DNA of 13,904 nt from an uncultured archaeon (lineage in GTDB: Archaea; Asgardarchaeota; Heimdallarchaeia; Heimdallarchaeales; Heimdallarchaeaceae), in contig CAZHRF010000063.1 of NCBI GenBank assembly GCA_964534625.1, forward strand, positions 1-13,904, in the 5' to 3' direction. The position numbers were made by a program, and so were the translations under genes. Positions 4,813 to 7,005 of this stretch are shown here, one piece after another; position 1 is the first letter of the stretch; each line of letters starts with the position of its first letter. The notes under the pieces were generated by a model. The model ran no database searches. It saw nothing but the letters and a program-made list of their open reading frames with translations, and was not told the DNA's origin.

Positions 4813-4858
4813 AAAACATCGCTCGTGACGGGGTCACCTATCCCAGAGTTAGCTTTTT
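4813..4858 (+). repeat. Direct repeat, left copy
   Basis: AAAACATCGCTCGTGACGGGGTCACCTATCCCAGAGTTAGCTTTTT; 38/46 identical to 6961-7005. Confidence 0.9.
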
Positions 4859-4869
4859 TTACTTGGACG

Positions 4870-5085
4870 ACTACGTATCTAAGCATAGTACCTGTACTTT
4901 CTATGACCCGGAGACTCTCCGGTACTCGATAAAAAAAACAGGTCTCTTGAACTGTAGGCTAATCCTTATGGGAATTCCCCGAATATAAAACTGAGGCTTT
5001 CGTTCAAGAATGCTAATACTACTAGTACTCGTTAAAACGCACCTCATACGAGAGGCGAGAGGAAACGGGGAAAGTATACGTAATT
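4870..5085 (+). ncRNA. Candidate IS110 bridge-type guide RNA
   Basis: Non-coding and directly upstream of the IS110 ORF. Domain 1: ACCTGT/ACAGGT (4890-4943) enclosing CCGGAG-ACT-CTCCGG. Domain 2: TCTTGAAC/GTTCAAGA (4945-5009) enclosing GGGAATTCCC. Domain 3: ATACT/AGTAT with CTCGTT/AACGGG and CCTC/GAGG (5016-5077). Each has internal loops. Confidence 0.6.
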
Positions 5086-5161
5086 AAACTAAACAAATAG
5101 GTGGTAAAAACTGAAAACAAATAGTAGCGGGGACAATAACGTCTCCAACAACCTTTCCAGT

Positions 5162-6808
5162 TTGCAATCCACGGGAACAGTATTGACCCCTACAGAACTC
5201 AACAGGTTAAGTTCTGCTAAGCTAAGAAAACTGTTACAATTTAAAAATGTTCCCGGTCGATCAAAACTGGCTAGAAAAACTCAACAAGTGCATGCACTTG
5301 AAGGGATAGTAACGGAGAAGGACGTGAAACAATTGAAGATGAACGTACCTTGTCCGAGAGAGAAAAAAGGATACCCCTCCGAAAAAATACAGAAGACAAG
5401 AGGGACACCAGGCAAAGGTAAACGCATAAATGAACCAGTAGGGGGAATGGATGTTCATAGAGATTGTATCATGGTGGCTGTTGCCTCTCCTGCAGGAATA
5501 ATCAGTGAGAAGAAGATCACCAACAACCAAGCTGGGATCAATGACTTGCTAACGTATTTCATCCATCATAACGTAAAATCTGCAGCGTTGGAATCGACAG
5601 CTGAATATTGGTTGAAAATGTTCTGGAAATTGTCAAACGCGGGAATGTACATACTTGTCGCTAATCCGCTCCAAACAAGAGCAGTACAAGGAGTGAAAAC
5701 CGACACCCTAGATGCGAGGAGAATAGCATTGGGGTTCAGAGATGGACGATTAAAACAATCAGTAGTCTGTACAGCTGACCAATACGTCATGAGAAAACTC
5801 AATAGGAACGCAATCAAGAAAACGCAAGAAGCAACAAAAAAAGCCAACCAAATAAAAGCCATGTTAGAAATGTTTGACGGAACAGAATGGGTACACTCAC
5901 TGCACAAAACAAACAGAGGGAGAAGAATTATAAGTCGAACTATTACATTAAGCGACCAACAGGATATCCTCTATGTACTAACCGAGGGATATGCAACAGG
6001 ACCAAAACAAGTCACAGACACAAACACCCTCCTCCAATGGGCAAAAGAGTTAACCCAATTCTATACTAATATGGACACCAATTCAAACTACCGGATACTC
6101 TATGCGCAACTAGTTGAAGAATACGTGCACTGTCAACGAAGAACTCGAGAATTACGGACAAAGGTTGTTCAGTGTATAAGTAAAGATACTCATATGCTAA
6201 AGGCGCGTGGATTGTTACTAACCGTTCCTAATGTAGGAATAGATACGGCACTGACTATTATCGTAGAACTAGTGGACATCAGATACGTCTCGACCTCGAA
6301 AGGACTAGTAAAATGGGCAGGATTGGCACCTAGAGTTAACCAATCAGGCCATCGAAAAAGGCAGACAGGACGTATTTACAAAGGAGGAAACAAGTGGCTT
6401 AGAAGAGCAGTCTGGATTGTGGCAAAAAACTGTTATGCATATCACAACAAAACGGGTGATCCAATCGGGGCATTCATTGACCGATTATTCAACCAGAAAC
6501 ATAAACACTACTTTACATCTGTTACTGCGGGAGCACGAAAACTTCTGACGTATATCTACCAAGTATTAAAACAACAAAAACCATTTGAAGAGATATTCAA
6601 AGTTGAACACTTAAAGCAATTGAAGAAGAATCGTGCCCGTAAACACCGTATCCTCCAGAGAATCCTTAAAGACAGTAGCATATCTGAACTCTTACCCATT
6701 CTTGCTCACGCGTTGCAAGATGAGTGTGTTAAGCTGGAACAAACCGACCGCCAGTTTGCCCTACAAGTAGCGTTAAAATTGGGTATTGAACCCTATTATC
6801 CCACCTAA
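5162..6808 (+). CDS. IS110-family DEDD recombinase/transposase with N- and C-terminal extensions
   Basis: GMDVH (D97), ALEST (E144), KTDTLDA (D181/D184), TVPNVG, WAGLAPRVNQSG (S395), GNKWLRR, ARKLL. The frame is open back to CTG 5111, which follows SD-like AGGTGG (5099-5104), so the start may be earlier. Confidence 0.95.
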   Translation: MQSTGTVLTPTELNRLSSAKLRKLLQFKNVPGRSKLARKTQQVHALEGIVTEKDVKQLKMNVPCPREKKGYPSEKIQKTRGTPGKGKRINEPVGGMDVHRDCIMVAVASPAGIISEKKITNNQAGINDLLTYFIHHNVKSAALESTAEYWLKMFWKLSNAGMYILVANPLQTRAVQGVKTDTLDARRIALGFRDGRLKQSVVCTADQYVMRKLNRNAIKKTQEATKKANQIKAMLEMFDGTEWVHSLHKTNRGRRIISRTITLSDQQDILYVLTEGYATGPKQVTDTNTLLQWAKELTQFYTNMDTNSNYRILYAQLVEEYVHCQRRTRELRTKVVQCISKDTHMLKARGLLLTVPNVGIDTALTIIVELVDIRYVSTSKGLVKWAGLAPRVNQSGHRKRQTGRIYKGGNKWLRRAVWIVAKNCYAYHNKTGDPIGAFIDRLFNQKHKHYFTSVTAGARKLLTYIYQVLKQQKPFEEIFKVEHLKQLKKNRARKHRILQRILKDSSISELLPILAHALQDECVKLEQTDRQFALQVALKLGIEPYYPT

Positions 6809-6960
6809 GATGACCTGTCTGTTAACAAAAAACAGCACCAGTTGTCAACAAGAAAAAATCGGTACCAACAACCCTGAGGTGAACCCTATGTGAGAACCCC
6901 AAAACGTCGCTGAATATCACGAAACGTGAGTAAGTTGAAAAATTGCGAAAAAAAAGATAT

Positions 6961-7005
6961 AAAACCTCGCGGGTGACAAGTCACCTATCCCAAAGTAAGC
7001 TTTTT
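6961..7005 (+). repeat. Direct repeat, right copy
   Basis: AAAACCTCGCGGGTGACAAGTCACCTATCCCAAAGTAAGCTTTTT; shares the 13-bp identical core GTCACCTATCCCA (6980-6992 = 4833-4845). Confidence 0.9.

Follow-up and report, generated by a model that had tools for sequence, protein, structure and literature searches.

An IS110-family insertion sequence with a candidate bridge RNA and its putative 70-nt derivatives in a Heimdallarchaeaceae contig

The bridge recombinases of the IS110 group of insertion sequences (IS), represented here by IS621 (Durrant et al. 2024, PMC11208160; structure 8WT6), combine a DEDD domain with a Tnp domain that carries the catalytic serine, and a structured non-coding RNA in the long left end, ahead of the gene, presents target and donor guides in two loops. 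The left guides have the sequence of the top strand and thus pair with the bottom strand, and there is no classical target duplication. The domains, the left-end RNA and, as putative guides, two loop strands with the top-strand sequence recur in an IS110-family element of an uncultured Heimdallarchaeaceae archaeon (assembly GCA_964534625.1; 3.37 Mb in 120 contigs, 32% GC), in the 13.9-kb contig CAZHRF010000063.1, the whole of which (13,904 nt) was analysed and is referred to as the window. The gene lies between two imperfect direct repeats (4813–4858 and 6961–7005) that have a hairpin and a 13-nt core in common, and we propose with good confidence that a 70-nt non-autonomous derivative at 6965–7034 directly follows an RNA-guided IS110 insertion sequence at about 4817–6964. 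The 'direct repeats' are the homologous heads of these two neighbouring elements.

The element departs from IS621 in several respects. Its protein has ~540–580 aa as against ~330, owing to a conserved N-terminal extension; long sense guides occupy the 3' strands of the loops; the core is apparently an A-run and not CT; a conserved hairpin and a T-run stand at the start of the left end; its host is an archaeon; and the RNA has no Rfam match. The 'structure-gated' IS110 element ISPpu10 (bioRxiv 10.64898/2026.03.19.712850) also has a small hairpin at its left junction and prefers intergenic 'safe' sites, but that hairpin is part of its repetitive extragenic palindromic (REP) target and includes the left target itself, whereas here it travels with the element. 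Sub-terminal inverted repeats (T8/A8, ~24 bp in high-GC relatives) recall the IS1111 group, in which repeats of 7–17 bp are expected in this position, although the guide RNA of that group is located in a long right end and not, as here, in the left; the inverted repeats are the only IS1111 character that we find, and we do not assign the element to that group. MITEs (miniature inverted-repeat transposable elements) and other non-autonomous IS derivatives resemble the 70-nt units in being short, non-coding, multi-copy and intergenic and in being made of both ends of an autonomous element, whereas classical MITEs involve DDE transposases and target duplications. Our literature searches for non-autonomous IS110 or bridge-RNA elements yielded the modular transposition of ISPpu9 (PMC12288879) and nothing else, with no bridge-RNA-dependent 70-nt derivative among the results. 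By every criterion that could be tested the element is an IS110-group bridge-recombinase element, set apart by its guide strand layout, A-run core, N-terminal extension and element-borne hairpin, and also by the combination of long sub-terminal inverted repeats with a left-end RNA and by its family of miniature derivatives.

The repeats, the guide RNA and an empty site

A sequence-only reading of the window had described an IS110 element bracketed by hairpin-containing repeats, 38/46 identical with a 13-bp core, and this description largely stands. A repeat search aligns 4833–4858 with 6980–7005 (26 nt, 92% identity, with GTCACCTATCCCA exact), and MAFFT continues the match leftwards over the hairpin and an AAAAC-TCGC lead-in, with the stem kept and the loop differing as that reading had it (GTGAC-GGG-GTCAC in the left repeat, GTGAC-AA-GTCAC in the right). 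The match is not due to chance, because the same motif occurs ~45 times in the genome; the IS body is present in a single copy, and what recurs is the ~75 nt about the right repeat. The reported drop in GC is also there, from 0.40–0.45 between the repeats to 0.25–0.31 outside them, and the fall to 0.27–0.31 beyond the proposed edges supports an element extending from 4817 to 6964. The open reading frame between the repeats matches PF01548 (E=7e-18) and PF02371 (E=4e-18), and the parts of the element and its neighbour are as follows.

4817–6964, + strand: whole IS110-family element of the bridge-recombinase type, ~2148 bp, delimited by guide matches, copy divergence and GC
4808–4816, + strand: left target remnant (left target plus A-run core), ATAAAAAAA, host DNA adjoining the element and identical, in sense, to RNA loop g1
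4825–4837, + strand: left-end hairpin GTGAC-GGG-GTCAC, within the left repeat and found in this position in all related elements
4838–4860, + strand: conserved CCTATCCC..AGC motif, then a T7 run (4854–4860), kept in all related elements
4880–5100, + strand: structured non-coding RNA (~220 nt), candidate bridge RNA, from RNAalifold on 17 elements
4895–4903, + strand: candidate right-target guide TACTTTCTA, 5' strand of the first internal loop, antisense to the A-core and AGAAAG-type right flanks
4929–4939, + strand: g1, putative left-target guide ATAAAAAAAAC, 3' strand of the first internal loop, equal to DNA 4808–4817
4983–4991, + strand: g2, putative left-donor guide ATATAAAAC, loop strand in the second stem, equal to DNA 6957–6965
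5162–6808, + strand: recombinase gene with a ~90-aa conserved N-terminal extension, DEDD (RuvC-like) domain and Tnp domain, from Pfam and homologues
6948–6964, + strand: right tip, an A8 run and then GATATAAAA (left donor plus core), kept at the right end of all related elements and matching g2
6965–7034, + strand: adjacent 70-nt miniature element with head, hairpin (6972–6985), T-run, GATC.., A-run and GTTACAAAA tail, holding the right repeat

Both junctions fall within A-runs (after ...AAAA at 4813–4816 and at 6961–6964), so the element boundaries are uncertain by 1–4 nt and the length of the core is not fixable within the homopolymer.

The RNA fold common to 17 elements has 32 pairs, 20 of them with compensatory double changes, and a scan of 4400–7400 against Rfam gave no match. 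Guides were sought by a k-mer scan and by a column-by-offset scan of the RNA against the flanks, which yielded two signals that stood out, each of them in sense orientation: g1 (z=6.9) corresponds to the 9–11 nt directly upstream of the hairpin head, and g2 (z=6.2) to the last 8–9 nt of the right tail. The mean longest match within an element exceeds that between elements for both (8.9 vs 6.2 nt for g1; 7.8 vs 5.6 nt for g2). Matches of g1 to the left flank hold in ~15 related elements with differing sequences (including TGATGAAAAT, TTTCTGAAA, TAAGTAAAAAT, GGAATAAAA and ATTAAAAAAC), those of g2 to the right tip covary in 14 elements (including ATATGAAA, GTATAAAA, ATGAGAAA, ATAGGAA and ATAAGAAAC), and element L173 provides a further case of a match between guide and edge; at the inner junctions the same scans gave no guide-like signal. 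The two segments, for which the overall count of covarying elements is about 15–17, appear to behave as the left-target and left-donor guides of a bridge RNA, and because the complementarity lies at the outer edges we place the crossover sites there, in the A-rich runs at ~4808–4816 and 6957–6964.

The candidate right-target guide gave a weak signal (antisense diagonal z=3.9), to which individual cases can be added: in L037 AUCUUU pairs with AAAGAT, and the flank of one unit (C18), ATAGAAAG, is the exact complement of the loop strand 4895–4903. The P4 hairpin and the 5' strand of P3 were tried as right-donor guides and showed no consistent complementarity. We also note that the second RNA stem has a 5' strand (4950–4965; GUCGGCCAAUCC in relatives) similar in sense to the left-end DNA just past the hairpin (4833–4845, GTC(A/G)GCCATCC), and the same internal similarity is seen in L038, L037 and L055.

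Comparison of ~25 related elements, down to 41% protein identity and some of them in much GC-richer DNA, shows a common left architecture of A-rich lead, hairpin, CCNTCCC, AAGC, T7–8, ~20 variable nt, non-coding RNA and gene. The hairpin stems covary (CTGAC/GTCAG, CCGAC/GTCGG, GCTGGC/GCCAGC, CCCGC/GCGGG, CCGAT/ATCGG and TCAAC/GTTGA). On the right all ~25 end in an A-run and a GATATAAAA-type tail and none has a second hairpin there, so the paired repeat is peculiar to the window locus. The identical copies L065/L066 and L064/L067 have exact heads and tails and diverge directly beyond them.

An empty site is available for one relative, L039. The SCP2-like gene to the right of this element is also present on three longer IS-free contigs (L168–L170), with which the L039 sequence is identical up to ...ATCTATTTATCTTTTTTTTTAT and then diverges. 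In the orientation of the IS the empty site reads ...CTGATAAATAAATAAAA^AAAAAGATAAATAG (also given as ...GATAAATAAATAAAA^AAAAAGATAAATAG), and the occupied right junction has ...AAAAAAAAGTTATAAAA followed directly by AAAAAGATAAATAG. The empty site is without hairpin, T-run, GTTAT tail or unit, and it contains an 11-nt sequence, AAATAAAAAAA, that is the one predicted by the g1 of L039. The empty allele supports the right boundary and is compatible with simple insertion, and targeting of REP hairpins, of the IS621 and ISPpu10 type, is not what L168–L170 show. The 3.7-kb L039 contig (L039/L171 compared with L168) matches the IS-free contigs on its right flank only; the contig is probably a chimera of assembly through a multi-copy IS, or else the IS marks a rearrangement. 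Searches for empty sites of the P0041, P0025 and P0035 elements returned occupied alleles only. In the metagenome-assembled genome (MAG) that contains L041, CCATCCACCCATAAGCTTTTT (+19 to +39 of the L041 left end, past the 3' arm of the hairpin) is found solely at the IS, which is uninformative, the contig probably being mis-binned. For the window site itself, the Logan contigs that contain its rfbH gene all break at window position 7008, inside the right unit, and are likewise uninformative.

We propose that the left repeat (head 4817–4860) would be the element's own left end and the right repeat the head of the adjacent unit, the left target of which would be the IS tail or, equivalently, the IS would have inserted just upstream of a solo unit. 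Recombination would take place in the shared A-run core, at a predicted target ATAAAAAAAA-TAGAAAG. The predicted circle junction joins ...AAAAAAAAGATATAAAA to CATCGCTCGTGAC... (6964 to 4817), and the predicted empty allele of the window site has ...GGTGATAAATAAAAAAA directly followed by CCTCGCGGGTGAC, which would be one intact unit. Excision would leave the right unit intact with no hybrid repeat, contrary to the single hybrid copy that had been foreseen. The anatomy, RNA structure, guide covariation, one empty site and the distribution of the family are shown here, whereas the recombination chemistry, any movement of the units and what hairpin and T-run do are inferred; the hairpin may serve in donor recognition or in transcriptional insulation.

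The 70-nt units

The sequence at 6965–7034 belongs to a family of 45–46 copies in the genome, present singly or as head-to-tail pairs, and is 100% identical over 85 nt to C2:141222–141306. The units consist of an A-rich lead, CCTCGC, the hairpin, CCTATCCC-AGTAAGC, T6, GATC(A/T)CAAGAAAAT, A6 and GTTACAAAA, which is the IS head up to the T-run fused to the last ~35 nt of the IS. Because all of the units have the same fusion point, they point to one origin followed by amplification. They would keep only the cis-acting parts of the element, namely the hairpin head, both sub-terminal T- and A-runs and the tail. Of 42 good copies 41 are intergenic, mostly with the tail towards the 3' end of a convergent gene, and a DNA search of 60 relatives found neither the unit nor the IS. 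The left flanks always end in AAAA and the right flanks are AGAAA-rich; these flanks fit the target guides, and the A-rich intergenic sites resemble the guide-specified target. Being short, non-coding and multi-copy, and possessing the cis ends of the parent, the units are best read as MITE-like non-autonomous derivatives, presumably amplified in trans.

Most unit tails are GTTACAAAA or GTTATAAAA, and the g2 of the window IS specifies ATATAAAA. At several solo units (for example C34:14795, C60:2755, C8:57568 and C91:6753) a tail-like AAAGATATAAAA or AAAGTTACAAAA lies upstream without a unit body. It may be that insertion favours the tails themselves, and this would account for the tandem pairs.

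We put the chances at about even that a bridge-RNA recombinase mobilises these units, which would make them the first non-autonomous elements described as moving in this way. In that case the head, hairpin, sub-terminal T/A runs and tail would constitute a sufficient donor; a piece too short to circularise would have to move otherwise, for example through donors formed at tandem junctions or by a half-match or replicative pathway; and bridge-RNA mobilisation of units would take place in an Asgard archaeon. The derivatives would amount to a natural 'minimal donor' experiment, indicating which cis sequences matter and prompting one to ask by what route so short a piece moves. Bridge recombinases are under development as programmable genome-writing tools. 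For annotation, the result means that hairpin repeats beside IS110 genes are not necessarily REP-type targets and can be the element's own ends together with their miniatures.

Weighing the explanations

The locus can be read in other ways, the most substantial being that the hairpin unit (~73 nt) is a REP-like intergenic repeat of the host into which the IS inserts, as ISPpu10 and IS621 do into REP hairpins, the IS then spanning only ~4861–6947 inside one unit of a tandem pair. The units do far outnumber the IS, an IS-free tandem pair at C2:141156–141306 resembles the left unit plus the right unit, target-side hairpins are reported for IS110 elements (10.64898/2026.03.19.712850), and in the high-GC relatives inverted repeats of 12–13 bp lie just inside the T-run and A-run. 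We nonetheless regard this as unlikely, since the L039 empty site is without a unit, the RNA guides match the outer edges and not the inner ones, and in hosts that differ widely in GC the hairpin head has diverged together with the IS; the absence of units from the 60 relatives searched means that they are no conserved host feature, and at the window site the unit would need to lack ~14 nt (GATCACAAGAAAAG). One alternative offered by the sequence-only reading, that the target was the end of a related element, comes close to the arrangement we propose. A still less probable view makes the units functional host elements, such as terminator or promoter cassettes or small-RNA genes, that spread without relation to the IS, the IS lineage having acquired or mimicked them. 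They lie immediately beyond the 3' ends of convergent genes, their hairpin with T- and A-runs could terminate archaeal transcription in both directions, and most unit tails do not match g2 of this IS, all of which would fit such a view. Against it, the IS clade has this head and tail as its conserved ends in many other hosts, the search of 60 relatives found no unit, and near-identical copies with one shared deletion junction speak for an IS derivative that was amplified recently. The reading of the 45-bp repeats as attL/attR-like hybrids of long donor and target homologues, one of which would remain after excision, was the principal inference from sequence alone and is now very improbable. 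It drew on the 38/46 identity, the exact 13-nt core and the presence of a recombinase gene between the repeats; yet the guides put the crossover sites outside the left repeat, homologous elements are without the right-hand copy, and the identity of the right copy to solo units elsewhere is 100% and extends to 30 nt without a counterpart on the left. Both findings that had been named in advance as telling against the paired repeats as ends were in fact made, one in the flanks of the related elements, where the paired repeats are lacking, and the other in a relative's empty allele, which has no hairpin.

Several points weigh against the explanation that we prefer, an IS110 element directly upstream of its own miniature derivative. 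The disagreement between the unit tails and g2 means that this IS copy may not be the mobiliser of the units, and the mobilising copy may be a lost or unassembled variant. A double-stranded circle of 70 bp is physically implausible as a donor. The left boundary follows from guide logic and copy divergence, without an empty site, and on its left flank L039 loses collinearity with the empty allele. The guides and flanks are A-rich, which raises the background of chance matches, with cross pairs reaching ~6 nt; it is the 3' strands of the loops that carry the long sense guides, the reverse of IS621; and the right-side guides are weakly identified, with no right-donor guide found. Finally, homology to the recombinase begins at 5120 and an in-frame TAA lies upstream of the likely gene start, probably a TTG at 5162 or 5183.

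The recombinase, sub-terminal features and neighbouring sequences

The recombinase residues D90, E137, D174, D177 and S388 (the last in a QSG motif) are invariant in 27 homologues, and the recombinase profile matches the solved IS621 (8wt6) and ISCro4 (9t56) recombinases with E ~1e-21. The DEDD/serine recombinase appears to be intact, and the window copy may be active. There are ~160 homologues of 575–585 aa, and the distinct clade to which the element belongs has ~100 metagenomic members; the sole informatively named homologue is from a Promethearchaeota MAG, a second named one carrying the label of a 'Cloacimonetes bacterium' MAG that is probably mis-binned. The Promethearchaeota homologue and the general features of the genome suggest that the host is probably an Asgard archaeon. 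The traits of the clade are its other guide layout, the added N-terminal domain, the donor-side hairpin and an apparently internal promoter. The N-terminal extension is ~120 aa in homologues, with ~90 aa before the first catalytic aspartate in the window protein, and is conserved at the protein level with the motif RAELxKLxSAxLYKLLxxKKVPGRSKL (window 5120–5449); Pfam gave no match to it, SAP and Rho_N included. A single-protein search of a collection of genome contigs for related loci gave none, and a query with the alignment succeeded. A ~94-aa Tnp-domain relic of the same recombinase clade lies at C20:38848–39126 and is the sole other protein-level match in the genome.

The non-coding left end is ~345 nt long and the right end 156 nt. 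The T-run of the left end mirrors the A-run of the right, the two forming sub-terminal inverted repeats that are longer by 12–13 bp in the high-GC related elements, and terminal inverted repeats between the start of the left end and the tip of the right are clear only in those same elements. In L039 there is an apparent parallel complement between the ends, which we judge to be an oddity. The T-run could possibly be a TATA-like archaeal box for the non-coding RNA, ~25 nt before the conserved RNA start, a role suggested solely by the ~20-nt variable spacer ahead of that start. We also considered a junction promoter, TATAAAA (6958–6964), which would face the left end after circularisation, and found it unsupported across the family; it was rejected because the tail sequences vary in step with g2 and have no TATA-like character in high-GC elements, and because the T-run would separate such a promoter from the RNA.

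A relative of the IS is present at C2 ~14075–14980 (- strand; L022, L035 and L036). It is ~900 bp long and lacks the recombinase gene, with its own hairpin head, a truncated non-coding RNA and an A-rich tail, and its g1- and g2-like segments (AAGAUAAC and GCAAAAAAA) fit its own flanks (GAGATAAAG| and GATGCAAAAG|).

An exact-protein look-up of the gene to the left of the IS returned no record. The 550-nt spacer between a nucleotidyl-transferase gene and the IS contains a perfect 14-bp inverted repeat (4594–4646; GAGGAGAACGGATA / TATCCGTTCTCCTC) with a 25-nt loop. A patch with 39–42% GC (1–1650) at the left of the contig encodes a partial transposase of the Mutator/IS256 type at 750–1442 (- strand; matches to PF00872 and MULE, with the profile covered only in part), and this stretch is probably a second, degraded insertion sequence.

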